The notes beneath the pieces are model-generated. The model had not been told where the DNA came from, made no database searches, and saw nothing but the letters and a program-made list of their open reading frames with translations. Positions 5,802 through 31,365 of a DNA stretch of 64,000 nt are shown one piece after another. This DNA comes from an uncultured Erysipelotrichia bacterium. Lineage in GTDB: Bacteria > Bacillota_I > Bacilli_A > JBKEDG01. Where the stretch lies: the NCBI GenBank assembly GCA_964593055.1, contig CAZQIG010000002.1, positions 28,631 to 92,630 on the forward strand. The letters run 5' to 3'. How positions within the stretch are numbered: the first letter of the stretch is position 1; each line of letters opens with the position of its first letter. Both the position numbers and the translations under genes were made by a program.

Positions 5802-5818
5802 CAAGAGGAGGCACAAAA

Positions 5819-6289
5819 ATGTTTAGCGGTAAAAAAATTGTGATTATCGGTGACCGTGATGGAATTCCTGGTGAAGCTATTAAAGCATGTGTTGAAACAA
5901 TTGCAGATGCAGAAGTAGTATTCTCTTCTACGGAGTGTTTTGTCTGAACGGCTGCAGGTGCTATGGATTTAGAGAATCAAAAAAGAGTAAAGGAATTTGC
6001 TGAAAACTACGGTCCTGAAAATTTAGTAGTTATTTTAGGAGCTGGTGAAGGAGAAGCAGCAGGTCTTGCTGCTGAAACAGTAACAGTTGGTGATCCAACT
6101 TATGCTGGACCTTTAGCAGGTGTAGAGCTTGGTTTAAATGTTTTCCATGCTGTGGAAGAAGAATTTAAATCAGCAGTTGATTCAAGTGTTTACGAAGAGC
6201 AAGTTGCAATGATGGAAATGGTTTTAAATGTTGATGAAATCGTTTCAGAAATGTCAGAAATTCGTAAATCTGGTAGTAAATTTTTATAA
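5819..6289 (+). CDS. grdA: Glycine/sarcosine/betaine reductase selenoprotein A (GrdA), with in-frame UGA = Sec at 5945-5947
   Basis: ATG 5819 sits after a GAGGAGG RBS. The translation is [15 protein letters not shown]...STECFV-U-TAAGAMD, which matches the conserved GrdA CFVU motif. The downstream ORF 5963-6289 is in the same frame. Confidence 0.85.
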
Positions 6290-14433: not shown

Positions 14434-14970
14434 ATGAATAAGAAAATTGTTTTTGGAATAATAGCAATTATATTGTTTTTTGTAGGTATTTTTGCTCTTG
14501 ATCCTAAGGAATATAGTAATTTAAAAAAGTTTGTTGAAGAAAATGATGTAAGAACGGTTGTCGCTAAACTAGAAAATGGTGAGGTTGAAGAATTAAATGG
14601 TGTTGCTTATCCTAATTATATAGAAGTAAGTAATGAAAGAGAAACAGTAGTTTTAGAAGACGATAATAATGAATTTTATGTATCAATAGCTCCATATTTT
14701 GATACAACCCATTCATGAACTATTCATTATTTGACAGGATGTCAAGGTGAATTAAAAAATTATGAATTAAATGTTGTTATTAAAACTATTGATGGTAGAG
14801 TACTATATGATGGTAAAAAGACAACTTATAGTAATGGATTTATGGGATTTTGGTTACCAAGAAACGTGGAAGCAATTATTGAGTTAGAAAGTGAAGGCAA
14901 GGTAGGTGTTTATGCACTATCAACATTTAGTGATAGCCCTACTTGTATTACAACCTTTCAATTAAAATAA
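14434..14970 (+). CDS. Membrane-anchored hypothetical protein split by one in-frame TGA (14716-14718); candidate selenoprotein, otherwise a nonsense pseudogene
   Basis: ORFs 14434-14718 and 14731-14970 are in the same frame and separated only by TGA. A hairpin TTGACA-GGA-TGTCAA begins 12 nt after the TGA. The organism decodes Sec (selC and grdA are in this window). Confidence 0.35.
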
Positions 14971-15415: not shown

Positions 15416-15862
15416 ATGAAAAAAAAATATTTGAAAATTAAATCTGTAATACTATTTTTAGTATGCATGCTTTTCTTAATAACTTTAAATATTGTATTAA
15501 AAGTTTTTTTAGATTTTAGTATCTTATTACATCTTGTTATGACGAGTATTTTATTTTTGAGTACTGTTGTTATAATTTTTATTCATGTAAAATACTTGCA
15601 GAGCTATAAATATAAAGTAGATGAGCAAAATCTTTATATTTTTTCTGGCTATGTTTGTAAAAAACATGCTTGCTTTCCAATACGTAGAATTCAACATGTT
15701 GAGTATTATCAATATATTGTACAAAAGAAATTTCAGCTCGCGTGCGTAAAAATTGTCACTGGTGGTGGAATTGGATTAATTAAACTTTTAGATGTTAATG
15801 AAGCGGTAGAATTAACAAATTTATTAAGTAGTACAATACATAGGAGGTTAGATGAAGAATAG
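15416..15862 (+). CDS. YdbS-like bacterial PH-domain (bPH_2) membrane protein
   Basis: 148 aa with an N-terminal TM pair and a C-terminal domain. It is paired with, and overlaps, a larger YdbT-like gene as in the B. subtilis ydbST operon. Confidence 0.4.
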   Translation: MKKKYLKIKSVILFLVCMLFLITLNIVLKVFLDFSILLHLVMTSILFLSTVVIIFIHVKYLQSYKYKVDEQNLYIFSGYVCKKHACFPIRRIQHVEYYQYIVQKKFQLACVKIVTGGGIGLIKLLDVNEAVELTNLLSSTIHRRLDEE

Positions 15863-17285
15863 AAATCATCCAATATCTATTATTAATATTAAATATTCTT
15901 TTCTAATATTATCTGTATTATTGTTTTTTGTTATTTTCTTTGAGAGCTCTAAAAAATGGGTATTTTATTTAGTAATCGCCAGTGTAGCTAGTTTATTTGT
16001 ACTATTTTTTTTATTGAGGATTTTGATGTGGTATAAAACAAATTATGAGGTTACTAATGACAAAATAATTTATAATAGATTTATGAAGTTTACTGTTTTT
16101 AATGTAACAATGAATATTGATAACATTTCTTCAATCAACGCATCAGCAAATTTATTATATAGAATTTTGCAAGTTTCTCGTGTTTCGATTACTTCTAATA
16201 CAGGAGTAGGAAATGCTGATGATTCAATTGATTTGATTATTTCTAATTCTCAATATCAACAATTAAAAGAAGCACTTGAAAAAGATTCTTCTACAAAAGA
16301 AGCTTCTTCAGAAGTTGTTAAGTATCGTTATAACTTTATCGATGTTCTTTATTTTCTACTTATTTCAGTAATTATTCCGGGTGTTATAGTAGTTATTTTC
16401 TCATTCTTACTTTTTAACTTACTAAAGATTAAATTTAATTTAAATACTGTTTTACTTGATTTTGATACTATATTATTTAGTTTAGAACTTTTAGTACCTG
16501 TATCTTTATATAAGTTTATTGAATATAAGAGACTTTTAAATCTTCAAGTTGTGTTTGATAGACTAAGAAGTAAAGTAATAATAAAATCATATTTATTATC
16601 AGAAAGTGAAATTGAGTTTGATTATCAGCAAGTGAAGGTATTGAAATTATATAATTATACATTATTTAAAAAATATTTTTTGAAAGTAGGTATTGTTAAC
16701 TCGTTAGAAACTTCTAATGAGGCAACGGTAATTCCTTTTCTTTCTGCTTTAACTAATAGACAAAAAATAGAAAGTATTTTAAATGATTTAAAATATAGTT
16801 TTAGTGAGAGGCTTAAGTATCGACCTAGCAAAGTTAGATTGCTATATATTGTGATACAAGTACTTATCTACGTGTTAATTCTTGTAATTATATTTTTCAT
16901 CGGAATAACATATCTTAATAATCCTTTTATCTGGCTTCCTTTCGCTCTTGCAACTTTTGTAGGAATTTTAAGAAAATTTCTTAAAATATTTAGCCATTTT
17001 AAAACTGAGTATATCGCATTTGATGAAAAAAATATTATTGTTGCTACTGATTATTATTTACATAAAAAATTTGTTTTTGATTATGATAATGTGCAGATGG
17101 TCACAATAACACAAAATCCATTAGATAAATTGTTTAAAGTAGCAAATGTTTATATTAATATTTTTTCGTATAATGTGCAAGAAAAAACGGTTTATAAACT
17201 AGAAAAGTATCGATATAAAAAAGCGAATGAAATTTTAAAACATATTGAGAGTAAAATAAATTATCAAAATAATATTAGAAGTTAG
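15852..17285 (+). CDS. YdbT-like multi-bPH-domain membrane protein
   Basis: 477 aa with repeated TM-pair plus soluble-domain units. It is translationally coupled to the upstream gene. Confidence 0.4.
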   Translation: MKNRNHPISIINIKYSFLILSVLLFFVIFFESSKKWVFYLVIASVASLFVLFFLLRILMWYKTNYEVTNDKIIYNRFMKFTVFNVTMNIDNISSINASANLLYRILQVSRVSITSNTGVGNADDSIDLIISNSQYQQLKEALEKDSSTKEASSEVVKYRYNFIDVLYFLLISVIIPGVIVVIFSFLLFNLLKIKFNLNTVLLDFDTILFSLELLVPVSLYKFIEYKRLLNLQVVFDRLRSKVIIKSYLLSESEIEFDYQQVKVLKLYNYTLFKKYFLKVGIVNSLETSNEATVIPFLSALTNRQKIESILNDLKYSFSERLKYRPSKVRLLYIVIQVLIYVLILVIIFFIGITYLNNPFIWLPFALATFVGILRKFLKIFSHFKTEYIAFDEKNIIVATDYYLHKKFVFDYDNVQMVTITQNPLDKLFKVANVYINIFSYNVQEKTVYKLEKYRYKKANEILKHIESKINYQNNIRS

Positions 17286-17312: not shown

Positions 17313-17384
17313 ATTTATAAGTGGGTATTTAAATTTTTTCTTTTATTATTATTTCAAGTAGGTGCAGTAATCATATTCAAAATA

Positions 17385-17681
17385 TTGATTGATGTTTTTG
17401 ATCTCAACTTAAATATATACTTCATAAGTATTATGTTTTTTCTTGCAACAGTGCCTTTATTGTCATTAAGTAATGGTTTGTATCATAGAAATGCGTTTGT
17501 TGTTTCAAATGCTATGATAATTGTAGTGCTGATGCTTTTAGTAGTATTAAATATTGGATTAGACTCAGAACTTAACTTTTTTCTTATTATAGTTTTGAAT
17601 AGTTTGGGAGTTTTTAATTTAATATATTTTTATTTAAGTGTAGACCTAGAAAAAAATGGCTTTAATACAGCCATACATTGA
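17385..17681 (+). CDS. Hypothetical small membrane protein
   Basis: 98 aa with three predicted TM segments and no recognisable motif. Confidence 0.3.
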   Translation: MIDVFDLNLNIYFISIMFFLATVPLLSLSNGLYHRNAFVVSNAMIIVVLMLLVVLNIGLDSELNFFLIIVLNSLGVFNLIYFYLSVDLEKNGFNTAIH

Positions 17682-17892
17682 AAATCAGAAAATTATTTTT
17701 TTAGATGAGCCATTTAATGTATTCGATAGAGGGCGGTAAATATTTTTGTTATAGTCAATCATAAATTCAACACTGATTTATAGAAAATTAGAACTCAAAC
17801 GTAGAGTTCTTTTTATTTTAGAAGAAATGAAGTCACTAAAAAAGGTTTAGTACATAGGAACAAAGATTGGAAGGGCATTCAATAAAAGAACA

Positions 17893-18009
17893 ACAAGAAT
17901 TAGTTGACTACTTGGATTATTTTCATGTTTTATTTGTTTGAAGTTGAATAGATTTTCGAGATTTTTTGAAGATAGGATATATTTTTTGCATGTTTTATAA
18001 ATTCATCAA
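17893..18009. repeat. R1 repeat, copy A (~117 bp, ~90% identical to 25099-25215)
   Basis: Aligned by eye: acaagaattagttgacYacttggattattttcatgttttatttgtttgaagttgaaYagaYtttcgagattttttgaagataggatatat...ttataaattcatcaa. Confidence 0.6.
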
Positions 18010-18402
18010 GTTGTTGGTAAAGTAAAAAAAGTTTATGAGGTAACTTATTTAAATGATGAAGAAGTTGAAATAAATTTAAAAAGTGAGTTCATTCATAGTG
18101 AAACAGTAGATGAAGGAGTATTATGTGAAACTAAAGTTATTCAAGATAATAAGAACAATTCTTTAGATAATGATTCAAAACAGACATATGACAATAGCGA
18201 TATACTTAAGATAGAAACACCGAAAGGAGCAGGTGGTACGGAAAATAAATCAGTATCTAAAGATGATATAGTTGCTCATAATAAGATGGGAGCATTTGCT
18301 AATAAGCTAGTATGTGAAAAATATGGTGATATTAATTATAAAGAACATGAGTTTTTAGACTTCTCGGATGGTAGCTTTAACATTCTGGGTATAAATAAAT
18401 AG
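18001..18402 (+). pseudogene. 3' fragment of a Rep_1-family rolling-circle replication initiator (no start codon)
   Basis: 134 in-frame codons ending ...AFANKLVCEKYGDINYKEHEFLDFSDGSFNILGINK*. This is paralogous to the C-terminus of the frameshifted Rep at 21988-22745. The EKYG..K region resembles the catalytic-Tyr motif III. Confidence 0.5.
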
Positions 18403-18522
18403 TTGAAATATATATAATAAAATGGTATATTTGTGTAAATAGGGAAGAAATCGTGAAAATAGTGATGAAAAAAATCATATATAATGATTGTGTCTAAATC
18501 ATTATATAAAGGGGAGAAAAAT

Positions 18523-18873
18523 ATGAAAAGATTCTTATCAATATTTATGTTATTATCTGTATTTTTTACATTTAATATCAATACACACGAAGTAGAGGCT
18601 GCTGTAAAGTGTAAAACTATCTATATAGGATATGGCAATCATAAAACAATTGTTTGTGAAGGAATTGATTACACATTCTTTAATGAGTATATATCAAAGC
18701 ATGAGATTCCGACTTTAGCATGGCAATCTGGTGCAAGTGTTAAGCGTAAAGGTGATGGGGTAAAAGAATGTCGTACAAGCCGTATGGGTTACATGGTTAA
18801 GGCAGATATCAGAGTCAATGGTAATGGCGCAAAATATTATCAAGGCCCTAGTTGTTATGTTGATACATATTAA
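18523..18873 (+). CDS. Secreted Cys-containing small protein (signal peptide plus ~90-aa mature part with 4 Cys)
   Basis: RBS AAAGGGGAG before ATG 18523. Signal MKRFLSIFMLLSVFFTFNINTHEVEA. It lies upstream of an ABC exporter pair. Confidence 0.5.
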   Translation: MKRFLSIFMLLSVFFTFNINTHEVEAAVKCKTIYIGYGNHKTIVCEGIDYTFFNEYISKHEIPTLAWQSGASVKRKGDGVKECRTSRMGYMVKADIRVNGNGAKYYQGPSCYVDTY

Positions 18874-18880
18874 AGGAGAA

Positions 18881-18912
18881 TAGCGCTTATTATTATAAGC
18901 GCTAACTTTTTA
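18881..18912 (+). terminator. Hairpin plus T-tract between the secreted-protein gene and the ABC permease
   Basis: TAGCGCTTAT-tatt-ATAAGCGCTA 10-bp stem followed by ACTTTTTA. Confidence 0.5.
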
Positions 18913-20825
18913 TGAAAAAAAATAGTATAACAATTATTTTAATAGTATTTATAGCCAACATAATTTTTTTAAATTATTTTTCTGATTCCAATATTATTAA
19001 ATTAAATGATGGAAAGTATGAAATTAATATTAAAAACATTGAAAATATTCATGATTTTTTACTATACATAGAAATAAATGAAATTGATGTTCAGGTAGAT
19101 GCTGAATATAATGAAGAATATCATACTTTTATTAGCGAATCATATATAAAAAGAACAGGTTTGGACAGCAATAAAAATTGTTTTACAGATAGTTTTAATT
19201 TTTATTTTTCAGAAAAAACCAACTATTGTAAATTAAATATGCTACCTTCTTTTAATGAAAGTTATAATTTTATTAATGATGATGATTTTACGTTAATGAA
19301 GGAATACTTAACAAGAAACAATATCGAATATTCTGTGACATCATTTAATTATATTTTAGAAACTATAGATTATACAATCATCTTTATAATAATGGCTATT
19401 TTGTTGATGTTGTTATTTCTGTTTGATGCGCAACATAATTTGAAAGTAAAAGCCATTTTAAAATTGAGTGGTTATAGTACTCTTGAAATTATTTTGAAAT
19501 ATTTTAAAATAATTTTTTTAGTAAGCACATTAGCTATTTTATTAATTTTATTATTTGATGCTGCTTTAATTATCTATTCAACACAAGTTTCAGAATTTAC
19601 AATTTTTGTGAAAAATTTTGGTTTGAATTTTATAGTAATTTCCTTTGGGATATATTTTCTCTATTTTATGGCTAATCTTTTAAATAACAAAATTAATATT
19701 TTAAAAATATTAAAAGGTAAAATCTCTAAACCTATTGTTTTCACACTTATTTTTACGACAAAATTACTCTTATCAGCATCACTAATTGCTATAGTTATTT
19801 TTAGTGTAATTGAAGTTTATGAAGTTATTGGTGATTTTAGTAATAAAAAACATTGGGATAAGTATGAAGATTATTATAAAATCGGTAACGATGATTATGG
19901 TAGTGATACATTTAGTAAATTTGTAACAGACAATTATGATAATATTATTTACTTTGACTATTATATTCCGAGTGATTATGAATCATATCAAACATATTGT
20001 GTAAATGAAAAAAAATCAATAACATACTGTCATGAGGTAAGGGTGTCCAAATTATTCTATCACGATTTAAGTTTAGATTTAAGTTTAGATATGAATGAAT
20101 ATAATTATGATTTACTAGTATTAGTTCCAGAAATTCATGAGAATGATATTGAAGTAATAAAAAATGAGCATAGCATAATGTACCCAGAATTAGATCTTTT
20201 CTACATTAGTGTCGATGACTATAAATTGTATTCTTATGACACTGGTACAAATATTTTAAATAGAGATTACATTATAGAACCATTAATTGTGATAGATGTT
20301 AAAGGTACACTTGCAAATGAATATTACGAAAATTTGAATAATGCTTATATTTATTCAAGTGATGTTCCTAATATAACTAATTATGTAATAGATTCTGATG
20401 ATATTAAAGGTATTAGGATTGATGAAAGTTTGAAGAAATATTATGAAGATTACTTTAATATAAAAGTCTTTAGGGCTTTGATTATTATCTTAGTAACTTT
20501 TATTGGTATGGCTCTATTAAATATTAATAATAATTATTTTATCAATCAGACAATTAATTTTACAATTGAAAAATCCATAGTTATGAAAACTAATGGTTTT
20601 AGTAACTTTGATATCTATTACTTTATTTATAGCTTTGTAATTTTTGTTTATATGATTACAGCTTTTCTAATTTACTTAATGACAAAAAGCTTTATTGACC
20701 TTAGTTATGTACTGTTAGTTTTATCAGGAGTGTTTATTATATTGGATTGTACTATGATTAATCACAAAATTAATAAGATTGAAAAAACTAAAATAGTAGA
20801 ATTTTTAAAAGGAGGCAGACTATGA
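18912..20825 (+). CDS. ABC transporter permease, FtsX/MacB-like (antimicrobial-peptide exporter type)
   Basis: 637 aa. TM1 is followed by a large extracytoplasmic domain and a 3-TM FtsX-like bundle, repeated. It is translationally coupled to the downstream ATPase. Confidence 0.55.
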   Translation: MKKNSITIILIVFIANIIFLNYFSDSNIIKLNDGKYEINIKNIENIHDFLLYIEINEIDVQVDAEYNEEYHTFISESYIKRTGLDSNKNCFTDSFNFYFSEKTNYCKLNMLPSFNESYNFINDDDFTLMKEYLTRNNIEYSVTSFNYILETIDYTIIFIIMAILLMLLFLFDAQHNLKVKAILKLSGYSTLEIILKYFKIIFLVSTLAILLILLFDAALIIYSTQVSEFTIFVKNFGLNFIVISFGIYFLYFMANLLNNKINILKILKGKISKPIVFTLIFTTKLLLSASLIAIVIFSVIEVYEVIGDFSNKKHWDKYEDYYKIGNDDYGSDTFSKFVTDNYDNIIYFDYYIPSDYESYQTYCVNEKKSITYCHEVRVSKLFYHDLSLDLSLDMNEYNYDLLVLVPEIHENDIEVIKNEHSIMYPELDLFYISVDDYKLYSYDTGTNILNRDYIIEPLIVIDVKGTLANEYYENLNNAYIYSSDVPNITNYVIDSDDIKGIRIDESLKKYYEDYFNIKVFRALIIILVTFIGMALLNINNNYFINQTINFTIEKSIVMKTNGFSNFDIYYFIYSFVIFVYMITAFLIYLMTKSFIDLSYVLLVLSGVFIILDCTMINHKINKIEKTKIVEFLKGGRL

Positions 20826-21445
20826 TTAAGATTAAAAATTTGAGTAAAAAATTCGATGATAAAAATATATTTAATAATTTAAATCTCTCTTTTGACAAGA
20901 GTGAGCTTGTAGCTATTATTGGTAAGAGTGGTTGTGGTAAAAGTACTTTACTCAATATTATTGGATTACTAGAAAGTTATGATGGAAATCTTGAAATACT
21001 AGGTAAAAATAATCCGAATCTTAATAAAAAAGATGGTCGAGAGCTTTTAAAAAATGAAATTGGATTTATTTTTCAAAACTTTGCTTTGATTGATAATTTG
21101 ACAGTTAGTCAAAATCTGAAGCTCGTCAGTAAGTATAACAACTCTGATTTAAGCTTTGAAGATGCTTTAAAAAAAACTGATACATTAGATTTAATTGACA
21201 AAAAGGTGTCTCAATTAAGTGGTGGTGAACAACAAAGAGTGGCTATTAGTAGGCTAATTTTAAAAAATCCTCAAATTATCTTAGCTGATGAACCAACAGG
21301 AAGCTTAGATGAAGAAAATAGAGATAAGATTTTGGCATTAATGAGAAATTTTGTAGATAATGGGAAACTTGTAATTATTGTTACGCATGAAAAAGAAATA
21401 GCAAACAAGTGTGATGTAATTATCAACTTGGAGGAATATGTATGA
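20822..21445 (+). CDS. ABC transporter ATP-binding protein
   Basis: Walker A GKSGCGKST, signature LSGGEQQRV, Walker B ILADEPTGSLD. Confidence 0.85.
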   Translation: MIKIKNLSKKFDDKNIFNNLNLSFDKSELVAIIGKSGCGKSTLLNIIGLLESYDGNLEILGKNNPNLNKKDGRELLKNEIGFIFQNFALIDNLTVSQNLKLVSKYNNSDLSFEDALKKTDTLDLIDKKVSQLSGGEQQRVAISRLILKNPQIILADEPTGSLDEENRDKILALMRNFVDNGKLVIIVTHEKEIANKCDVIINLEEYV

Positions 21446-21912
21446 AAAAGATTTTTGTGCTCTTATTGGTGTTGATAATATTTTTTATTGGAGGGTATTT
21501 AATCTTTTTGAGTTTATCTGATAAAGAAATGAAATTGTATACTAAAGAGTTTTATGAACTAGGTTATACAGATTTTGATGATAAAGAGAATATTTATTCT
21601 AAAAAAGATACTTATGAAGGTTATAATACAACATATAGCTATCACTTGAGTTCAAATTACTTGAGTGTCAGTGTCTTTTTGAACAATAATACGCATATGT
21701 ATAATTTAGCATCAGATGATGGAAAGTTAATAGATTATGTTTTCTTAAATTTTGAAGAAAATACTAAATTTGAATGTAATGTTGGTGAAAGTGAGATATT
21801 TCAAGACAAGTGTCCAGATATTTATGGTGTATATAATGAAGCAAATGTAATTGAAGTTCTTGAAAAGATGTATGATGAAGAATTAATAAAAATAGAAAAT
21901 ATTATTGATTAA
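21442..21912 (+). CDS. Membrane-anchored extracytoplasmic hypothetical protein
   Basis: N-terminal TM followed by a Cys-containing soluble domain. It overlaps the ATPase stop. Confidence 0.4.
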   Translation: MKKIFVLLLVLIIFFIGGYLIFLSLSDKEMKLYTKEFYELGYTDFDDKENIYSKKDTYEGYNTTYSYHLSSNYLSVSVFLNNNTHMYNLASDDGKLIDYVFLNFEENTKFECNVGESEIFQDKCPDIYGVYNEANVIEVLEKMYDEELIKIENIID

Positions 21913-21987
21913 TTTTTTATAACTGTATATTAAAATTAGTGTTTTGGAGCTTTAATAGCTCTTTTTATTTTAGAAAAAGGAGAAAGT

Positions 21988-22745
21988 ATGCAACTAAAAA
22001 AGGATTTAGTACAAAAAGTAAATATAAAGAAGAACCAAATAATTTATAACTACTATTTAAAAAGTAGTGCATACAATAGAGAAGTAAAAGACTTTAGAGA
22101 TGGAACGCATCTAACAGTAGGAGATAAGCTGGTCTATAAAGTAAGCTCCACAACACTTGTTTGATGGGATATAATTTCAATCATACACTTTCTCCTTGTT
22201 ACATAAACTATAATAATAAATTAAACTTACTAAAACTATCGGAGATATTTGATAGTTTTTTTGAAAAGTATCATATAGATGAGAAGTTTTTCTTTGTAAC
22301 GCTAACAATGCCAAGTCTAAAGTCGGACATAGAGTTGTTAGAAGAAAATAACAAACTGATTAAAAAAGCTAATCAAGTTATTACTAGCTTATATAAACAG
22401 CTAGAAAAGAAGTATGGAACAAATGAATTAATCAAAAAGTATGAAGTCACATATAGTACAGTAAAGGTGATGTTTACAGTCACCCATATTTTCATTTAAT
22501 CATAACATTACCGCCGAATGTATGGCAGATGAAAAGTACAGAGTTAGAAGTGTCGTCAAGAGAGTATATTATAAATTACTAGTATAAGCACTTTTTAAGT
22601 AAGCATTTTGAAATTAAATTTGAAGATGCATTAGGATCATTTGCAAATGAAGTAGCATGTGAAAAATATGGTGAAAACAATTATAAGACACATGAGTGTT
22701 TACCACTATCAGATGGAAGTTTTAATATTATTGGTATAAATAAAT
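21988..22745 (+). pseudogene. Rep_1-family (pC194/pUB110-type) rolling-circle replication initiator, disrupted by at least two frameshifts
   Basis: Three consecutive frames give an N-terminal piece (MQLKKDLVQ...), then FFFVTLTMPS (motif I FLTLT-like) to HPYFHLII (HUH motif II), then ...SFANEVACEKYGENNYK...GINK* (motif III Tyr region). Confidence 0.55.
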
Positions 22746-22862
22746 AGTTGAAATGTAGATGGTAAAATGGTATATTTATGTAAACAAGACATACTTTGTA
22801 AATAAAAGGGGGATAGTATAAACACATTATTAATGTCCAAATACATTATAAGGGTGGTTATT

Positions 22863-23900
22863 ATGAAAAAAATAATTCGTCAAATAATAATTATAATTTT
22901 GGGTGTGGTTGTATTAGTGCCGTCGCACATTAATGCTATAAGTAAAAGTAGTGATAAAAATAGTAACGCATTTGAAACTTATATTCCAGAGTCACTAGAA
23001 TATGATGAATATACAATTGATTTTTATAAGGAATATAAAAATTATAGGTTAGCAAAAGATGAAATACTTAGAAAATATAATAGCTTAATAGTGAAGTATA
23101 ATAAAGAGTATGAAGAAAACTTGAAATTAGAAACATATGATGATATTCAAAATGCAATAGCATATGGGGTACTATTGATGGATGATGACCAGTTTTATAA
23201 GAAGGCAGGTGAATTTGTGGGAAAATTAGATATTTTGGAAAACACGTTTAAAAATAGTGATATAAACATATTATATAAATCATTGTTTAAAAGAAATGCT
23301 AATGAGTTCAATTCACTATCAATGCTTGCCATTTCAACTCCAGCCAATGAAAATAGCCAAGATATTTATAAAAATGTAGTGGAACCAGCAATTGGAAGAC
23401 AACGTGCGTCTTTCAATAAAAGTAATGCAATTAATTATGCAAAAAAACATGCAACAAATAGGAATAGCAGTTATAAAAGTTTAGATTTAGATTGTACAAA
23501 TTTTGCATCACAAATTTTAAGAGCTGGTGGATGGTCGTATACAGCTACATGGAGATATAGTTCCTTAAAAATTCCTAAAACATGGTCAAGAGCTGATTAT
23601 TTTGTGAAGTACTGGTCAAAATATGATAGCACAACTTGGGGTAGTTTTAATACTTTAACAACCTATGTGCGTGGCGGAGATTTTATTACATATGATAGCT
23701 CTAGAGATGGTGACTGGGATCATGTTGCTTTTGTGACCGCTAGATCATCATCATATTATCGTCAAAACGGTAGAAAATATTATTCAACGAAGATTGCACA
23801 GCATACTTCTGATTATCACAAATGGGCATACTATACAGGTTGGCAAAATTTTGACACCTCTTCTAGAGATAGGTATTATAGATATTTACGTTTTTGGTAA
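22863..23900 (+). CDS. Secreted protein with a C-terminal putative amidase (Amidase_6-like, papain-fold Cys/His) domain
   Basis: Signal peptide MKKIIRQIIIIILGVVVLVPSHINA. The C-terminal region contains DLDCTNFASQILRAGGW ... DWDHVAFV. ATG 22863 follows a GGGTGG RBS. Confidence 0.45.
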   Translation: MKKIIRQIIIIILGVVVLVPSHINAISKSSDKNSNAFETYIPESLEYDEYTIDFYKEYKNYRLAKDEILRKYNSLIVKYNKEYEENLKLETYDDIQNAIAYGVLLMDDDQFYKKAGEFVGKLDILENTFKNSDINILYKSLFKRNANEFNSLSMLAISTPANENSQDIYKNVVEPAIGRQRASFNKSNAINYAKKHATNRNSSYKSLDLDCTNFASQILRAGGWSYTATWRYSSLKIPKTWSRADYFVKYWSKYDSTTWGSFNTLTTYVRGGDFITYDSSRDGDWDHVAFVTARSSSYYRQNGRKYYSTKIAQHTSDYHKWAYYTGWQNFDTSSRDRYYRYLRFW

Positions 23901-23921
23901 TTAATTGAAAGGGGATAGGAA

Positions 23922-24479
23922 ATGAAAAAATTCAATCTTTTATTAATTGTGGTTGTATTGCTTTCAGGATGTAATAAAGATACGGGATTTAACTATGAAG
24001 ATGCAAATTTTAGAGTAAATAACAAATATTATCCGATAAAAAATGAAGATGATTTTAATAGATATTATAGTGTTCCAAAGTCAATATATAATGACTCGGA
24101 AAGTGAAATTTTCAATACTAAAACTAATTATATTAATCCATATTTGATTGGAGATATGTATAATATTGGGATAGAAAGTTTTAATGAAAAATATTACATG
24201 GGTAATACAGGGATCTACTATTTAATAGAAGATACAGCTTTGAAGGATTTTGAGGAGATATCAATTATTATAGGAATGGAATTTTTTGCACAAGATATTT
24301 ATTATAAGAGTATCATTGTTAATGGTGAGTGCGAACTAAATATTAGCTATGAAGATTTAGATAATAATGTAGTTAATTATTCATCTTCTGAGGAAGCATG
24401 TGAACTGTTAAAAGAATATAACGAAGAATTTTATGATGAATTAAATAATTATTTAAAATCAGCTTATGGATATGAGTAG
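23922..24479 (+). CDS. Lipoprotein, hypothetical
   Basis: Lipobox LLSGC at residues 13-17; 185 aa; two Cys in the mature part. Confidence 0.5.
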   Translation: MKKFNLLLIVVVLLSGCNKDTGFNYEDANFRVNNKYYPIKNEDDFNRYYSVPKSIYNDSESEIFNTKTNYINPYLIGDMYNIGIESFNEKYYMGNTGIYYLIEDTALKDFEEISIIIGMEFFAQDIYYKSIIVNGECELNISYEDLDNNVVNYSSSEEACELLKEYNEEFYDELNNYLKSAYGYE

Positions 24480-24684
24480 TATGAAAGCTTTATTTTCATG
24501 TAAATATCTATAGAGTGATTAGAATACTATGTAGAATATATGATTAATTTATGTGTCATGTGGTAATTTAAGAGCTTTATGTAAAAGTTAATGGAATTTA
24601 GAACTATGAAGGAAAGATTATTCATTATATGGTACGTATAAAGCAAGATGTAATCACTAAAAACAATAGACAGGAGTTAAATAA

Positions 24685-24990
24685 GTGGAAATAGTTTATT
24701 TTGAACCAAATTCAATTTTTGTGTTACTGTTATTTTTAGGACTCTTCTATTTAGCAACATTCACAATATGTTTGGTTACTATTAAATTTGATGTTCTGGG
24801 GAAATTGTTTTTAGTAGTATCTTTACTATTGTATTTATATGTTGGATATTATATGACAGCTGCTAGTTATTATGCTGATGACAAGTCACTGGATATATTT
24901 TCAAGTTATGGATATTTGGAATTAATAATATTAGTATATCCTTACATATTTTTATCAATAGCATGTAGGTTTGGAGAGAAAAAAAATTAA
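24685..24990 (+). CDS. Hypothetical small membrane protein
   Basis: 101 aa with 3 TM segments. GTG start. Confidence 0.3.
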   Translation: MEIVYFEPNSIFVLLLFLGLFYLATFTICLVTIKFDVLGKLFLVVSLLLYLYVGYYMTAASYYADDKSLDIFSSYGYLELIILVYPYIFLSIACRFGEKKN

Positions 24991-25098
24991 AATAATATAA
25001 TTTTTATACAATTTCTGCAAACGAGTTCAATTAATAAATTGAGCTCGTTTTATTTTGAAAGGAAGGAGAAAGTGCTTAAAATTTAAAAAGACCGCTTT

Positions 25099-25215
25099 AC
25101 AAGAATTAGTTGACCACTTGGATTATTTTCATGTTTTATTTGTTTGAAGTTGAACAGACTTTCGAGATTTTTTGAAGATAGGATATATCTTTTAAAAGTC
25201 TTATAAATTCATCAA
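25099..25215. repeat. R1 repeat, copy B
   Basis: ~90% identical to 17893-18009. No ORF follows this copy. Confidence 0.6.
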
Positions 25216-25649
25216 ATAAAACTGGTTAGTATTATGAAGCAGATTAACATGACAAATACTCCATGAAATTTAGCACTGTATGTGTAAAGTGCTGTAATCT
25301 AGACATGATTAATGAAAACATTAAAATGTAGTATGTTGGTAAAGCAGCTAAAAATGAGTATCATTTTGGAAGAGAACCTTAGGGTTATTTGAAAAATAAA
25401 GAGGAAAAATTAGTTTAGAATCTTAAGGTTAAAGAAACTAATATTATTGGTACTATCGACTTTACTTTAAATAATTTTATGAAACAATGATAAAAGAATT
25501 TAGTGAGGCACAAACTTTGCAAATAAAAACAATTTAAGAGTTAAGGCAATTTCATATGTTCTAGGTTTGTTTTAAGAAAAGAGTCTAATTATGACAGTTG
25601 TTTTTGAAAGAGACATAAAATCAGAATAACTATTTGATATTTTTGTCTT

Positions 25650-25709
25650 TTTTAGTTTTTCTTCCATTGTACAGGTGCATATAAAAACCCCTAAAGTTAG
25701 AATAGTATA
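25650..25709. repeat. R2 repeat, copy A (~60 bp, 3 mismatches vs 27024-27084)
   Basis: Aligned by eye: tttttagtttttcttccattgtacaRgtgcatataaaaacccctaaagttagaRtagtata. The minus strand reads TATACTA..AGGGG-8 nt-ATGCACYTGTACAATGGAAGAAAAACTAAAAA, i.e. a conserved -10-like box, RBS and start of a tiny ORF. Confidence 0.55.
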
Positions 25710-25936
25710 GTTGTTACTATTGTTCTTGTAAAGTTTATAAAATAATTTGATTAAAAGATATATCAACATTATTAGTTATTTAATTGTGTTATACTTAATA
25801 TAAGAAGTATTGAATCATAAATATGGAAGGAGTGAAAATGAGTATATTTAGATTACTAACTTTAGAGAATCATTCAGAATTAGAAATATTAAGTATAGTT
25901 TAATAAAGAATTCTTTAATGATGGAGGCTAATTATA

Positions 25937-26542
25937 ATGAAAAAAACTTTAAATTTGATACTAGTCTTAGTAATTCTTGTATCCACAGGTAGTATTTATA
26001 ATATCAACAAAGGATTTAATTTGTTTTCCAAAGTAATTGAAGCCAATGAGAATGAATACTATGATGATACAGTAGAAAATTTAATAGAATCAGTTAATGA
26101 TTATGATGTGATAAGAATTAATGATGATAAGTATGGAACTAGGTATCTGGGTGGTTATTATGAGTATAAATATTCTCATACTATAACGTATAATGACAAA
26201 TATTTAGGTGTGCACCCTAATTTTTCAGCTTCAAATCCATTATACTCTGATGGCTATTATTTTAGTACTACTAATGATAAAAGGTTTAGTGCATCAGTTA
26301 GTGTAGGGGTTAAATTTGTTTCTGTATCATTTAATGTAGATGCTTCTAGTTCTGTGGGTAGTGGTTACTTTAGGAGTGCTAGTTCTTCTAGAAAGTCTTT
26401 ACCGTATATAAGAGCGGATTTAAAAGTTAAATTCTATGATATGTATATTTATGACGATTATGGAAAACTCTTAGCTATATCACGTGATTATTATACTCAA
26501 ACAACTACATCAGATAGACAAATTTTTATAAAATACTTTTAA
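25937..26542 (+). CDS. Secreted hypothetical protein
   Basis: Signal peptide MKKTLNLILVLVILVSTGSIYN. 201 aa, Tyr/Ser-rich. Confidence 0.4.
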   Translation: MKKTLNLILVLVILVSTGSIYNINKGFNLFSKVIEANENEYYDDTVENLIESVNDYDVIRINDDKYGTRYLGGYYEYKYSHTITYNDKYLGVHPNFSASNPLYSDGYYFSTTNDKRFSASVSVGVKFVSVSFNVDASSSVGSGYFRSASSSRKSLPYIRADLKVKFYDMYIYDDYGKLLAISRDYYTQTTTSDRQIFIKYF

Positions 26543-26564
26543 AGTTTGATTTTAGGGGGAGAAT

Positions 26565-26819
26565 ATGAAAAAAGAAATTATTAAAGCGTTCATATATACT
26601 TTACTTATAGTTGCAATATTTATATTATTAGATAATTACATAGGTTATGTAACTAGCAATTATGTATTAGAATCGTTTCTTGACAATTATAAAGAAATGA
26701 TCAATATATTTTTTCATATATTTACCATTATATTGATTATAATGTGCACAAAATATATACTATATAAAAGAAATAATGATGATATGATTACATTTGAGCG
26801 AAAAGACAATAGTAAATAG
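26565..26819 (+). CDS. Small 2-TM membrane protein
   Basis: 84 aa. RBS GGGGGAG before the ATG. Confidence 0.35.
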   Translation: MKKEIIKAFIYTLLIVAIFILLDNYIGYVTSNYVLESFLDNYKEMINIFFHIFTIILIIMCTKYILYKRNNDDMITFERKDNSK

Positions 26820-27023
26820 AGTAATAGTCTAATAAGAGAGTTAATGCCATTATAGTTGGATATTTAAATTATGATGCCGTTTTAATACAATTATGAATGG
26901 AAGATTTGTAACATAATGGAGAATCAGATTTAAATAAACTAAATGAATGTACAGAAAAATGAGGAGACAAGTATCAGTATAAATTTAAGCTGTAGAGACA
27001 ATTGGAGCTTTCATTTTTAGTTT

Positions 27024-27084
27024 TTCTTCCATTGTACAAGTGCATATAAAAACCCCTAAAGTTAGAGTAGTATATTTATTATAC
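27024..27084. repeat. R2 repeat, copy B
   Basis: Lies ~40 bp from the 3' end of tRNA-Gly. Confidence 0.55.
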
Positions 27085-27121
27085 AATTCTCTCCAACTTA
27101 TGGGGTCTTTTCAATTCTAAA

Positions 27122-27195
27122 TGGAGCGGGTGAAGGGAATCGAACCCTCACAGTCAGCTTGGAAGGCTGAAGTTCTACCATTAAACTACACCCGC
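27122..27195 (-). tRNA. tRNA-Gly (anticodon UCC)
   Basis: Reverse complement GCGGGTGTAGTTTAATGGTAGAACTTCAGCCTTCCAAGCTGA...TTCGATTCCCTTCACCCGCTCCA; CCA is encoded. Confidence 0.85.
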
Positions 27196-27196
27196 A

Positions 27197-27272
27197 TGGC
27201 GGTCCAGACGGGATTCGAACCCGCGATCTCCGCTGTGACAGAGCGGCATGTTAACCACTACACCACTGGACC
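27197..27272 (-). tRNA. tRNA-Asp (anticodon GUC)
   Basis: Reverse complement GGTCCAGTGGTGTAGTGGTTAACATGCCGCTCTGTCACAGCGG...GGTTCGAATCCCGTCTGGACCGCCA. Confidence 0.85.
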
Positions 27273-27349
27273 AGTAGGAATATAATATCATATGGAACTA
27301 TATTTGTAAACAACTTTTTATAAAAAAAAGAAACTGCGAGTAGCAATTT

Positions 27350-28795
27350 CTATAAAAATATTTTTTGGTACTTATTTTTAAGGTACTCAATTAGGTATTG
27401 AATATTAAAGCTTTCACCAGTTACTTCTTCAAGAATTTCCAGCTGTGTCTTTGTAGCAGCTTTTTGGTGAATGTTTTGATGTAACCACTCATGGATTGGT
27501 TTCAAGTTACCAGAACTAAGAACTTTTTCAAAATTCAATTCTTTTTTCATTGTATTTAAAAATTGTGCTGCAAAAGCTGTACCCAATAAATATGTTGGAA
27601 AATAACCAAACTGACCAGCTGACCAGTGAACATCTTGTAAGATGCCATTATTATCTTCATCAACTTCGATATTGAAATATTTAAAGTATAGTTCATTCCA
27701 ACGTTTTTTAGCATCTTTTGGATCAAGTAAACCGTTAAATAGTTCTTTTTCAATATTATATCTCAATAAAATATGGAGTGGATAAGTTAGTTCATCAGCT
27801 TCAACACGGCTATAACTTGGACTCACATCATTGACATACTTATAAAACTCCTTTTCATTTAGATGTGCATACATTGGGAAAATAGTTTTAATTTTGTCGA
27901 AATGTGTTTTTAGAAAAGTTTCATTTGTAAATATAAAAATTTCATAAAAGCGTGACTGTGACTCATGAAAAGCTAGTGATGCAGAAGAGTCTAATAAAGT
28001 ATTTTCTAAATTAGTATCAAATCCTTGCTCGTATTTAGCATGACCTAATTCATGAAATAAACTCTTCATACTTGAAAGAGGGTTATTAGTATATTTAGTT
28101 GTTAGACGTACATCTTGAGTAGAAAGTCCCATACAAAAAGGATGAACACTTTCACTTATCTCTCCTCTTGCTAAATCAAACTCCATGATATCTACAATCC
28201 AATCTTTCATGATTTTTTGTTCATCAAGACAATCATCATTTAATAATTTTGGTTGTACAGCTTTGTTTGCTATGACTTCTTTTACAAAAGGAACTAATTG
28301 TTCTTCAATAACTTTAAAAATTTCATCATATTCTTTAGTAGTAAAGTTTTCTTCAAAACTATCTAATAATGTATCATATAAATTGTCACACGTTGCCATT
28401 ATTTCAGCATTTTTCTTAGCATTATCAATTGAAGCTAACAAAGCAGCTTCATAGATAGAATAATCATTTTTTTGTCGTGCTTCTTCCCATTTTTGATTGG
28501 CCTCAAATCTGATTTTTTGTGTTTCTTGAATAAACTCCTCACTAAATTTTTTGGCATTATCAACAAATTTCAATAATATTTCACAATGCCTTTTGTTTTT
28601 AGGATCTTTTTGAGCTTCTAAAATAGCTTGATAGAATTTATCATCTGTTAAAAGATTTTTTCTATCAATTGTTAATTGGGTCAAATAGTCTTGGACAAAG
28701 CTTGCTGTTTTCACCTTGTTTTTTGTATGGATTTCCCATAACAATACTCCGTATAAATAAGAAGTTTGCTTAAGCAGTTTAATTGTTTTTTCCAT
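27350..28795 (-). CDS. Carboxypeptidase Taq (M32) family metallocarboxypeptidase
   Basis: HELGHAKYE (HExxH), HPFCMGLSTQDVRLTTKY, 481 aa. Confidence 0.85.
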   Translation of the reverse strand: MEKTIKLLKQTSYLYGVLLWEIHTKNKVKTASFVQDYLTQLTIDRKNLLTDDKFYQAILEAQKDPKNKRHCEILLKFVDNAKKFSEEFIQETQKIRFEANQKWEEARQKNDYSIYEAALLASIDNAKKNAEIMATCDNLYDTLLDSFEENFTTKEYDEIFKVIEEQLVPFVKEVIANKAVQPKLLNDDCLDEQKIMKDWIVDIMEFDLARGEISESVHPFCMGLSTQDVRLTTKYTNNPLSSMKSLFHELGHAKYEQGFDTNLENTLLDSSASLAFHESQSRFYEIFIFTNETFLKTHFDKIKTIFPMYAHLNEKEFYKYVNDVSPSYSRVEADELTYPLHILLRYNIEKELFNGLLDPKDAKKRWNELYFKYFNIEVDEDNNGILQDVHWSAGQFGYFPTYLLGTAFAAQFLNTMKKELNFEKVLSSGNLKPIHEWLHQNIHQKAATKTQLEILEEVTGESFNIQYLIEYLKNKYQKIFL

Positions 28796-28819
28796 AAATC
28801 CTCCTTTTCAAACATTATA

Positions 28820-29569
28820 TCATAAATGGAAATTTTTTAGTATTTCTATTTTTGCATGAGGTTTGATTTCAAAATGATTATCGTAGAAAGTTTCACCATC
28901 TATTTGAAATAAGCGTTCATCAGTTTTAATAGTAATATTTTTTGCTGTTGTTATAAAAATATATTTTTTAAAAAGCGGGTGTAATCCTAACTTTAAGAAA
29001 AGGATTAATAAGGGGATTAAGAGCTTATTTATATTATGAGCAATGACTATTTGTAAGTCTTCTTGCTTGAGATTGGCACTAGGTGCAATTTTAAAGCCTT
29101 TTCCAAAATATTTTCCATTTTGACATGAGCATAAGTATACATTTTGAAAAGTTTTAGTTTTTTGGTCATACTTAATTGTAAGAGAAAATGGATGGAAATT
29201 TTTCAAAGCACTGAAAATTGAACGAAAATAAGTTTTTTTATTTTTCGTATTTAGAACATGGCAAATTACGGCATCAATTCCACATCCAAAACCATTAATG
29301 AAAAAATGTTCATTAAGTTTATAGGTATAAGTTAAAATGCTGTTAGAAAAATTTCTTGCTAAGTCATTACCTGTACCGTAAGGATGTAAAATTATTTTTG
29401 ATAAGCTATATTTATTTATAAATTTGTTTAAGGTACCATCACCACCATACAAGTGAATTTCATCATTTTTTGTAAAACTATAGGAACGTTTACAAGTACT
29501 AAGATCAATCATTTCATGTGCATTTTGTGGTATTTTTTTTGCCTTTGAATTATAGAATCTGTATTTCAT
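28820..29569 (-). CDS. Lipid kinase with a DAGK catalytic domain (YegS/DgkB-like)
   Basis: LYGGDGTLNKF and HPYGTGNDLARNF. Confidence 0.5.
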   Translation of the reverse strand: MKYRFYNSKAKKIPQNAHEMIDLSTCKRSYSFTKNDEIHLYGGDGTLNKFINKYSLSKIILHPYGTGNDLARNFSNSILTYTYKLNEHFFINGFGCGIDAVICHVLNTKNKKTYFRSIFSALKNFHPFSLTIKYDQKTKTFQNVYLCSCQNGKYFGKGFKIAPSANLKQEDLQIVIAHNINKLLIPLLILFLKLGLHPLFKKYIFITTAKNITIKTDERLFQIDGETFYDNHFEIKPHAKIEILKNFHL

Positions 29570-29693
29570 ATTACAACTCCTTTAAGAACTACTAATAATT
29601 GTAACAAAAAATGGTAAAATTGAAAATAATTGTGTTATAATAATTTTATGAGAAAATGAAAGAAATACAATCTTTGAAATAGGAGTGATAACG

Positions 29694-30131
29694 ATGAAAA
29701 TAGCACTTGGAAGTGACCACGGTGGCTTTTTTTTAAAGAAAATTGTTTTAGACTATTTATTAAAAGAAGGATATGAAGTTGAGGATTGTGGCACGTATAA
29801 TGAAGAAAGTGTGACATATGCTGATTATGGTATTTTAGTCGGTGAAAAAGTAAGAGATGGGAAAGTTGATCGTGGAATTGTTATTTGTGGTAGTGGTGTA
29901 GGAATTAGTATTGCAGCTAACAAAGTTGTTGGAGTAAGGTGTGCTTTAGTTAGTGAGCCTTATTCAGCAAGGCTTTCTAGAGAGCATAATGATGCCAATG
30001 TTTTAGCATTAGGCGCGCGATTAATAGGTCCTGATATGGCTCTTGAAATTATTAAAACTTGGCTTATAACAGAATTTGAGCAAGGAAGACATGTGAAAAG
30101 GATTAAGGTGATGACAGATTATGAGGAGTGA
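29694..30131 (+). CDS. rpiB: Ribose-5-phosphate isomerase B
   Basis: [11 protein letters not shown]...[18 protein letters not shown] 29694 follows an AGGAG RBS. Confidence 0.85.
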
Positions 30132-30135
30132 AAAG

Positions 30136-31365
30136 ATGGATGAGACAGTACTTAATGTTTTAAATAGTGAGTTAAAAAGACAAAGGAATAATATTGAGTT
30201 AATTGCTTCTGAAAATTTTGTTTCAAGAGAAGTAATGCAAGTTCAAGGAAGTATTTTAACTAATAAATATGCAGAAGGATATAGTGGTAAAAGGTACTAC
30301 GGTGGTTGTGAATATATTGATGTAGTAGAAGATATTGCAATTGAAAGAGTCTGTAAATTATTTGGTAGTAAATATGCTAATGTTCAACCACATTCAGGAT
30401 CATCAGCTAATATGGCAGCGATTAGAGCATTAATTAATCATGGTGATGTAGTTTTGGGAATGAAGCTTGATCATGGTGGACATTTAACACATGGGCATCC
30501 TTTAAGTTTTAGTGGTGGAGATTATACTATCTATAGTTATGGTGTTAGTTTAGTCTCAGAATTGATAGACTATTCTGAAGTTGAACGCTTGGCTTTGAAA
30601 CATAAACCTAAGTTGATTATTGCTGGTGCTAGTGCTTATACACGTGAGATAGACTTTAAAAAATTTCGTGAGATAGCTGATAAAGTTGATGCTTACTTAT
30701 TAGTTGACATGGCACATATCGCTGGTCTAGTTGCTACATCTTTACACATGAATCCTTGTCCTTATGCTGATGTTGTAACTTCTACGACACATAAAACGCT
30801 AAGAGGTCCACGTGGAGGAATAATTTTAACTAATGATGAGAAAATAGTGAAAGCTATTAATCGTGAAGTTTTTCCAGGTATTCAAGGTGGACCGTTAATG
30901 CATGTTATCGGGGCAAAAGCAGTAGCTTTTGGAGAAGCTTTGTCAATTGATTTTAAAATATATCAGGAGCGTGTTGTTGAAAATGCTAGATTTTTAGCGA
31001 GTACTTTAGAAAAATTAGGGTATCGATTAGTAAGTGGTGGAACTGATAATCATATTGTGTTAGTCGATGTAAAAAAATCGGTGCAGATGACTGGTAAAAA
31101 AGCTGAGCAGTTGTTAGATGATATAGGCATAACATGTAATAAAAACACGGTTCCTTTTGATGATGAAAAACCTTTTATTACAAGTGGAATTAGATTAGGA
31201 ACAGCTGCTATGACGACAAGGGGGTTAAATGTAGAAGATTTCATTGAAATAGCACATATTATTGATAGTACTTTAAAAGAAAAAGATACAGTTGAAAATT
31301 TACGTACTAGAGTTTTAGAAATAACGAAAAAGTATCCACTATATGAGGAGCATAAGTATGAGTAA
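30136..31365 (+). CDS. glyA: Serine hydroxymethyltransferase
   Basis: PLP site [14 protein letters not shown]. ~410 aa. Confidence 0.9.

Follow-up and report, generated by a model that had tools for sequence, protein, structure and literature searches.

Three repeated units next to a tRNA pair

The 64-kb stretch of DNA analysed here (the window) comes from an uncultured Erysipelotrichia bacterium and displays a GC content of ~29%, a strongly positive GC skew and nearly all of its genes on the + strand. Our subject is a block of ~9.3 kb (17790-27011) situated between a pair of bPH_2 (YdbS/YdbT-like) genes and a tRNA-Gly/tRNA-Asp pair. A sequence-only reading that preceded this analysis had described the region as an accessory island of plasmid debris and secreted or envelope proteins, set between core-like genes, YdbST-like on the left and M32 carboxypeptidase on the right. 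Both flanks were found, and no housekeeping gene was present between the end of the bPH_2 pair (17285) and tRNA-Gly (27122) in the open reading frame (ORF) list, Pfam or NCBIfam. The segments 17700-18480, 25000-25930 and 26820-27120, presumed to be non-coding, indeed contained no credible ORF. The block consists of three co-oriented units arranged head to tail (4.2, 3.1 and 2.0 kb), and units of 2-4 kb match small rolling-circle plasmids in size. The following features define them.

17790-21945, + strand: unit A
21946-25018, + strand: unit B
25019-27011, + strand: unit C
17790-18402, + strand: Rep relic A; hairpin and T-run 17790-17810, ATG 17827 with a stop after 7 codons, repeat D2a 17893-18009, C-terminal frame ending with TAG 18400-18402
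18403-18431, + strand: promoter-like site TTGAAA-17-TATATT with TG extension (TGnTATATT), inside repeat D1a, directly after the Rep stop
21946-22747, + strand: Rep relic B; hairpin and T-run 21946-21962, ATG 21988, three frame fragments, stop 22745-22747
22748-22776, + strand: second copy of the post-Rep promoter-like site, inside repeat D1b (22634-22784), unit B
25019-25215, + strand: Rep relic C; 14-bp hairpin and T-run 25019-25050, ribosome-binding site, GTG 25072 with a stop after 4 codons, repeat D2b 25099-25215

Terminator-like hairpins were abundant in the block (11, versus 1.3 expected from shuffles). The hairpins at 17790-17810, 21946-21962 and 25019-25050 were each followed by a T-run, a ribosome-binding site and a start reading M..LKK, and this common arrangement at three sites points to three starts of one gene type. 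In terms of repeats, the two families recognized previously were both confirmed, D1 (18289-18439 / 22634-22784, 81% identity, E 1e-34) tying Rep relics A and B, and D2 (17893-18009 / 25099-25215, 93% identity, E 6e-45) tying Rep relics A and C, but the count rose to three with D3 (25646-25716 / 27011-27081, 93% identity, E 9e-24), which had not been listed. As the hairpin-led Rep starts and the repeats recur in register, we regard the block as three units, each composed of a Rep relic and cargo. The promoter-like sites of units A and B face the cargo genes. In all three units the cargo ORFs were uninterrupted whereas rep was broken. We also considered D2 as a single-strand origin and rejected this, as good folding is confined to one copy (z -3.2, against +1.4 for the other) and the structure is unconserved.

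Relics of rolling-circle rep genes

Concerning the rep genes, the decay noted in the sequence-only reading was evident, but its count of two was not: there are three decayed gene starts, with Rep_1 motifs recognizable in copy B only. An uninterrupted Rep frame was found in none of the three copies, all of which contain early stops or frameshifts. In relic A, D2 replaces the N-terminal half, and the C-terminal 37 codons are kept (D1, 81% DNA identity to relic B). Relic B (21988-22747), when stitched across two frameshifts, gave a protein of 250 amino acids (aa), whose matches by tblastn were proteins annotated as 'protein rep' on small Staphylococcus and Enterococcus plasmids. It displays, in order, the motifs SPCYINY (Cys), FFFVTLT, KYEVTY and HPYFHLII (HUH), the last reached only past a frameshift. 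These motifs are collinear with the Cys motif, FLTLT, LEVTY and HPHFH of the Rep proteins from plasmids pIB07 and pTM1. A catalytic Tyr motif was not identified in the relics; a possible CEKYG in D1 did not line up with AKY in the reference Rep proteins.

The state of relic B differs between sister assemblies. One contig (L025, GCA_019826185.1) has 10 extra bases at position 22157, by which the first two fragments become an ORF of 173 aa. Because this indel differs among assemblies, the decay of rep is still in progress in the population.

Unit B and its plasmid counterparts

The cargo of unit B comprises three genes.

22863-23900, + strand: secreted Amidase_6 protein (papain-like, NlpC/P60-type) of 345 aa; signal peptide, Cys in DCTNFAS, His in DWDHVAF
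23922-24479, + strand: orphan lipoprotein of 185 aa, lipobox LLSGC
24685-24990, + strand: orphan protein of 101 aa with three transmembrane (TM) segments

The first matched Amidase_6 (PF12671) with an E value of 5e-22, and its score of 79.2 bits exceeds the gathering cutoff (23.2). When the island proteins were searched against plasmids by tblastn, as had been proposed, relic B led to the 'protein rep' entries described above and the amidase to homologs located downstream of rep on two very small rolling-circle plasmids, pIB07 and pTM1; one phage also encodes a homolog. In pIB07 of C. botulinum (5.9 kb) and pTM1 of B. altitudinis (7.2 kb), a Rep_1 'protein rep' is followed by an Amidase_6 gene and a small gene for a lipoprotein or membrane protein. 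Unit B thus resembles these plasmids in its order of rep, secreted Amidase_6 and small envelope partner, in its extent of a few kb, and in the alignment of the Rep motifs with relic B. It differs in that it is chromosomal, its rep is a pseudogene and there is no Mob gene. The lipobox partner of pIB07 is also unlike the unit B lipoprotein in sequence, and the unit B partner lies downstream on the same strand.

The protein from 23922-24479 is a candidate immunity partner of the amidase, a role suggested by its position and by precedent; lgt is encoded in the window. A type VI secretion system effector of V. cholerae with an Amidase_6-like domain, TseH, has the immunity partner TsiH (PMC4453574), and in B. 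subtilis the proteins with this domain have yet to be characterized (PMC10653849). TseH/TsiH and Gram-positive bacteriolysins share with unit B a papain-like amidase domain next to a small envelope partner. Unlike TseH, the unit B amidase is predicted to be exported by a Sec signal peptide and not by a type VI secretion system, and the unit B partner is an orphan.

One sister contig (L003) carries 13 substitutions relative to the window, all within 23168-23388, a region at the contig end that corresponds to the N-terminal part of the amidase gene, and the remaining 15.4 kb has none. The pattern hints that the population contains either a diverged allele of the amidase gene or a second copy of it.

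Unit A and the lactococcin 972 system

Unit A harbours four genes and a hairpin between the first two.

18523-18873, + strand: small Sec-secreted protein of 116 aa; 26-aa signal peptide ending VEA|A, 90-aa mature part, 4 Cys
18881-18904, + strand: intercistronic 10-bp hairpin followed by a T-run, separating the small gene from the permease gene
18912-20825, + strand: permease of 637 aa; 1+4+3 TM, two large outside loops
20822-21445, + strand: ATP-binding cassette (ABC) ATPase of 207 aa, its start overlapping the permease stop
21442-21912, + strand: fourth-gene protein of 156 aa; one N-terminal TM, outside domain with conserved Cys

The ABC ATPase named in the sequence-only reading was present, as were the amidase-like secreted protein, the lipoprotein and the small proteins with two or three TM segments. 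The best model for the ATPase was TIGR03608 ('putative bacteriocin export ABC transporter, lactococcin 972 group') at 238.4 bits, with the next model ~80 bits behind (159 bits). We retrieved the lactococcin 972 (Lcn972) cluster from plasmid pBL1 of Lactococcus lactis, in which lcn972, orf2 (DUF1430) and the ATPase gene orf3 encode proteins of 92, 648 and 207 aa, respectively. Lcn972 is a lipid II-binding bacteriocin whose cluster includes the putative immunity ABC genes orf2-orf3 and stabilizes its plasmid (PMC4055356).

The two clusters agree in gene order and sizes: a small Sec-type gene, a hairpin with T-run, a permease of ~640 aa and an ATPase of 207 aa abutting the permease stop. The hairpin was found in the lcn972-orf2 interval of pBL1 and also in a homologous cassette on contig L006. 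The ATPases are 45% identical and both nearest to TIGR03608, and the permease families appear remotely homologous with the same TM layout (1+4+3 TM, two big loops). With respect to the permease, a HMMER scan of 1.84 billion representatives returned three homologs at 26-29% identity, and a k-mer-seeded search returned only self matches for both the permease and the small protein. When a profile of the four permeases was compared with that of DUF1430 proteins (hhalign), we obtained a probability of 93% and an E value of 3.4e-7 over 406 collinear columns. Two of the homologs (P0003 and P0005) gave weak FtsX matches and the third (P0004) gave none. As far as these profiles indicate, the permease is remotely related to DUF1430, a family known as 'bacteriocin-associated integral membrane protein'.

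The three homologous contigs (L006-L008), which are unrelated to one another, all carry the permease, a TIGR03608-like ATPase (236.6-247.9 bits against the model) and a protein of ~165 aa together, so that the fourth gene is conserved in 4/4 cassettes. L006 is the sole homologous contig with enough upstream sequence to reveal a small secreted gene. The only homolog of our small protein lies there, at 5628-5942 (50% identity), in the equivalent position of the matching cassette, and the family motif is SRMGYxVKADxRVNGxGAKY. The sequence-only reading had described a signal-peptide Cys protein; the signal peptide and the four Cys are present, but the Cys are not conserved in this homolog. The small protein had no match in Pfam or NCBIfam even at E 10, was not matched to the lactococcin 972 family (PF09683 / TIGR01653), and its PDB profile search misses the Lcn972 structure.

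Several differences from pBL1 were thus apparent. The structural protein of the window belongs to another family by sequence, is longer (90 aa mature) and has four Cys; the permease is too divergent for the DUF1430/TIGR01654 models; a fourth conserved gene (~160 aa, N-terminal TM) is added; and the host is of a distant Izimoplasma-like low-GC lineage. A plasmid origin would be common to both, although pBL1 is a theta replicon (PMC4055356), whereas the relic Rep of unit A would be of the Rep_1 rolling-circle type. Taken together, the comparisons suggest that the transporter part of unit A is distantly related to the Lcn972 system, that the putative toxin represents a new family and that the fourth gene is an addition. 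The small protein is, as far as its sequence tells, a candidate bacteriocin of this new family.

We also considered that unit A, rather than producing a bacteriocin, may be an ABC module for peptide resistance or sensing (BceAB- or MacB-like) to which the secreted protein is accessory. The FtsX/MacB-like layout of the permease would suit such a module, the small protein is not demonstrably Lcn972-like, and the TIGRFAM model name itself calls the role of the transporter group putative. Set against this, the gene order is that of pBL1 while bceAB has the ATPase first, no two-component system is adjacent, and L006 has the small gene together with the transporter, the small proteins being 50% identical and the permeases only ~25%. 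A module of this kind is therefore unlikely in our view, and a system related to that of Lcn972 is preferred.

Two neighbourhoods of the related cassettes deserve description. The L006 cassette (9098-9631 region) is chromosomal and without a Rep relic, and ends 160 nucleotides (nt) before a cluster of six tRNA genes. In L008 the cassette is followed at 3795-4676 (- strand) by a secreted 165-aa and multi-TM 124-aa pair and then by an IS21 IstB fragment. This pair shows no sequence similarity to the 201/84-aa pair of unit C, and represents a second case of cassettes accompanied by such pairs.

Unit C and the tRNA border

The remaining features extend from unit C to the tRNA genes.

25646-25716: repeat D3a, duplicating part of the flank next to tRNA-Gly
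25838-25903, + strand: 21-codon ORF (MSIFRLLTLENHSELEILSIV) with a strong ribosome-binding site (GGAAGGAG), lying within an inverted repeat of 29 nt (25790-25818 / 25869-25897), a short distance upstream of the gene for the 201-aa protein
25937-26542, + strand: orphan secreted or N-anchored protein of 201 aa
26565-26819, + strand: orphan protein of 84 aa with two TM segments
27011-27121: probable native downstream flank of tRNA-Gly, including D3b (27011-27081), by homology to contig L011
27122-27195, - strand: tRNA-Gly(tcc)
27197-27272, - strand: tRNA-Asp(gtc)

Rep relic C is followed by 430 nt without assignment and then by D3a. The pair of 201 and 84 aa had no homolog in any library searched. 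The C-terminal half of the 21-codon ORF loosely resembles a double-glycine-type leader cut short.

The right edge of the island had been placed ~40 bp from the 3' end of tRNA-Gly, which was regarded as a classic integration hotspot. The 40 nt proved to be the distance from the tRNA to D3b, but the junction itself lies elsewhere. When metagenomes were scanned for the tRNA-Asp/tRNA-Gly junction, 10 loci were recovered and none was syntenic. One contig (L011) has this tRNA pair among other genes, with thrB upstream, and its positions 1232-1350 match window 27012-27113 with 69% identity over 112 nt (88% with the tRNAs counted). The homology covers 110 nt downstream of tRNA-Gly and ends at 27012, where D3 also ends. 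As the homology stops at this position, the 110-nt flank is probably native and the junction of the block lies at ~27011. The conserved flank holds an extended -10 box (TTGTATAAT) directed away from the tRNA. An ORF downstream of tRNA-Gly in L011 prompted us to consider D3 as the end of an IS3-type element, and this was rejected, as there was no helix-turn-helix, transposase or plasmid match. The D3 copies bracket the 201/84-aa gene pair, and are compatible with insertion of circular DNA via that homology or with segmental duplication.

These results bear on the possibility that the block is a tRNA-targeted island, that is, a degraded integrative and conjugative element, integrative and mobilizable element or prophage that a tyrosine or serine integrase placed at the tRNA-Gly 3' end and that has since eroded. 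The block does adjoin the tRNA pair, the related L006 cassette is also next to a tRNA cluster, and the 71-nt D3 brackets the last 1.4 kb in the manner of attL/attR of an integrase-less cis-mobilizable element (CIME). We found no ORF or domain in the block for an integrase, recombinase, excisionase, transposase, relaxase or phage protein. Searches of the island proteins and DNA against PHROGs, PDB and viral contigs gave nothing, and Rfam identified only tRNAs. The 3' end of tRNA-Gly (25 nt) occurs once in the 64-kb window with up to 3 mismatches allowed, D3 contains no tRNA sequence, and the 110 nt beside the tRNA are shared with the tRNA flank of another organism. No specific mark therefore supports the hotspot reading, and we judge integrase-driven insertion at this tRNA to be very unlikely.

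Islands linked to tRNA genes are known, as is the tandem accretion of integrase-less, att-flanked elements in the CIME-type arrays of streptococci. The block resembles these in that co-oriented modules are stacked beside a tRNA gene, with D3 bracketing the tRNA-proximal module. It differs in lacking an integrase, in that D3 is without a tRNA end, and in that its borders are Rep relics and not att sites.

Composition, distribution and continuity of the block

We examined whether composition distinguishes the block. The GC content of the island genes was 0.261 versus 0.296 (p 0.009), a difference residing mainly in codon positions 1 and 2. The codon-usage analysis called for in the sequence-only reading revealed only a marginal effect, as the GC content at third codon positions (GC3) and the synonymous-codon fit of the island genes differed at p ~0.03. 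The GC-skew analysis, also proposed there, brought out no contrast, the skew of the block being that of the core. The dinucleotide delta* of the island window was 79.6 in a leave-one-out comparison, ranking first of 110, with a core window reaching 76.8. A striking dinucleotide contrast obtained at first was discarded; the reference had left out the island alone, and the leave-one-out comparison removed most of the contrast.

For a comparison with an empty site, no sufficiently close relative was found among genomes or metagenomes. In one scan of a species-representative genome collection, the closest relative of the M32 carboxypeptidase was 41% identical and another was 33% identical, with no tRNA nearby. 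Among 15 billion proteins AtpD had no relative of at least 90% identity, and its 90% cluster has one member. Three sister assemblies and three read sets represented one strain, with the same island in all.

A vertical origin, in which the block is an old inherited set of envelope and secreted genes with local duplications and the Rep-like stretches are very ancient or coincidental, accords with several of these observations: codon usage, GC3 and dinucleotide signature barely differ from the core, GC skew and gene orientation follow it, the island is identical in all samples, and the L006 cassette is chromosomal with no Rep. It does not readily explain why collinear, frameshifted Rep_1 motifs should recur three times, in register with hairpins and cargo, or why there is synteny with actual Rep_1 and amidase plasmids. 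In addition, repeats of 93% identity imply recent events, and nearly all cargo proteins are orphans with at most a few distant homologs. Vertical descent is quite unlikely on this evidence.

Contig breaks and sequence variants cluster in the block, raising the question of a metagenome assembly chimera, with plasmid contigs misjoined into a chromosomal contig. Ends of sister contigs fall in the block or at its left edge (17365, 17515, 17535, 17621, 17919, 22005, 23137, 23467 and 25960), and the left junction is bridged only by the contig of the window itself and by overlaps of 20-107 nt. An 89-kb contig of another assembly, on the other hand, matches 17515-30825 with 100% identity and runs through every unit junction as well as the tRNA junction. 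The A/B junction is also crossed by L025 and L033, and the C/tRNA junction by L003, L004 and L032. As independent contigs, including the 89-kb contig, span the junctions, the join to the chromosome is real and not an artefact, and a chimera is exceedingly unlikely.

The left border is where the assemblies branch. The sister-contig ends at 17365-17621 come from five sister assemblies or read sets, and suggest a branch of the assembly graph, due either to a variant or to a repeat elsewhere; the breaks could reflect a population variant at this junction. Within 17365-17621, two contigs of one assembly overlap by 107 nt and are nevertheless unmerged.

A probable array of captured plasmid-like units

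The Rep_1 relics, the synteny with plasmids, the orphan cargo, the repeats of 93% identity and the clustering of breaks and variants all argue for a foreign plasmid origin. The description as plasmid debris with secreted and envelope proteins is thus borne out, and can be sharpened to three Rep_1-relic units, two of whose cargoes have plasmid counterparts. We consider it probable (roughly 60%) that the block is an array of three small rolling-circle-plasmid-like units, each a Rep_1 replicon with competition cargo, lodged between the YdbST-like genes and the tRNA pair.

A number of results weigh against this interpretation. Composition is only marginally atypical and fails to mark the block as foreign. 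Stitched relic B scored E 4e-6 and 26.9 bits against Rep_1 (PF01446), below the gathering cutoff of 33.2, and relics A and C had no Rep_1 match, being recognizable only by the common start and the repeats; sub-threshold or missing scores are expected for pseudogenes. We found no origin of replication, no free plasmid form and no intact relative of the Rep, and D2 has no assignable function. Concerning unit A, the permease matched neither DUF1430 nor TIGR01654 directly (Pfam and NCBIfam HMMs), and the ATPase was 16 bits short of the TIGR03608 cutoff of 254.85. A comparison of the small protein with Lcn972 (hhalign) was not significant, with P 0.009 for the single sequence over 30 columns and 0.13 profile-profile, and AlphaFold models of the full-length and mature protein were unusable (pLDDT, the predicted local distance difference test score, 45 and 37). 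Finally, the lipoprotein and the 101-, 201- and 84-aa proteins are all orphans, and their 'immunity' or 'toxin' roles rest on position only.

Within this array the rep genes decayed after capture via early stops, frameshifts and internal deletions, with the cargo kept intact. The cargo of units A and B would be transcribed from the promoter conserved right behind the rep stop codon. Unit A would be a lactococcin-972-type system, in which the small Sec-exported protein acts as the toxin, the hairpin may hold the toxin transcript in excess, and the permease, the ATPase and the fourth, anchored protein would shield the envelope of the producer itself. Unit B would secrete the Amidase_6 protein as a cell-wall hydrolase, with the lipoprotein and the small membrane protein presumably providing self-protection. 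Unit C may represent a third pair of secreted and membrane proteins. As for the entry route, recombination between the related rep genes of successive plasmids, or a Campbell-type insertion via the ~70-nt D3, can be envisaged. Integrase-mediated targeting of the tRNA is not indicated.

A broader view would be that a deep-branching, Izimoplasma-like low-GC bacterium serially captured small rolling-circle 'weapon plasmids' at one spot, resulting in a domesticated array with recycled promoters. In this view unit A would be a bacteriocin system that is new, sister to that of lactococcin 972, and very rare, as four protein clusters occur among 1.84 billion representatives; its toxin would have a new fold or belong to a new family, and a fourth component would be added. 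We put this forward tentatively and regard it as doubtful in its full extent. If true, the block would be an example of rolling-circle plasmid domestication, with rep lost and cargo and promoter kept, three times at one site. It would further provide a new candidate family of Sec-secreted bacteriocins far from the lactic acid bacteria, accompanied by an immunity transporter like that of lactococcin 972 and by a fourth component, as well as candidate immunity partners for an Amidase_6 hydrolase. Lcn972 itself is of interest as a narrow-spectrum lipid II binder. These possibilities extend known themes into an unstudied lineage, and do not overturn current ideas.

Flanking genes and other features of the window

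Adjacent to the block, we identified the following.

15416-17285, + strand: bPH_2 (YdbS/YdbT-like) gene pair, left flank
17385-17681, + strand: left-edge debris, an orphan 98-aa ORF with three TM segments (ORF list, TM prediction)
17656-17740, + strand: ABC ATPase relic of 28 codons (...KIIFLDEPFNVFD..., Walker B, D-loop), overlapping the end of the 3-TM ORF, without the upstream part
27350-28795, - strand: M32 carboxypeptidase, right flank

The ABC relic matches the last 22 positions of PF00005 weakly (E 0.21). As it and the 3-TM ORF sit left of 17700, the left border of the block is blurred. The bPH_2 pair displays a low GC content resembling that of the island (0.235-0.248). In B. subtilis, ydbST is associated with an intrinsic resistance to antimicrobials that other bacilli produce, and by analogy the pair may be functionally part of the block.

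The chromosomal genes on the left side include uvrA, lgt, trxB, glycine-reductase genes with tRNA-Sec and a copper ATPase gene. Those on the right include the M32 carboxypeptidase, a YegS-like kinase, rpiB, glyA, upp, the atp operon, polA and rnr. A 1175-aa ORF at 57156-60683 (+ strand) has a very low GC content (0.224) and no Pfam match.

A CueP-like gene at 14434-14970 (+ strand) consists of one reading frame split by a single in-frame TGA at 14716-14718 (...THS-TGA-TIHYLTGCQ...). Pfam CueP spans both halves, the split is identical in sister contigs, and a perfect hairpin (TTGACA-GGA-TGTCAA) follows 12 nt further on. The window also contains tRNA-Sec (4371-4467) and the glycine-reductase genes. 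The gene probably encodes a selenocysteine-containing CueP with a U-x7-C motif.

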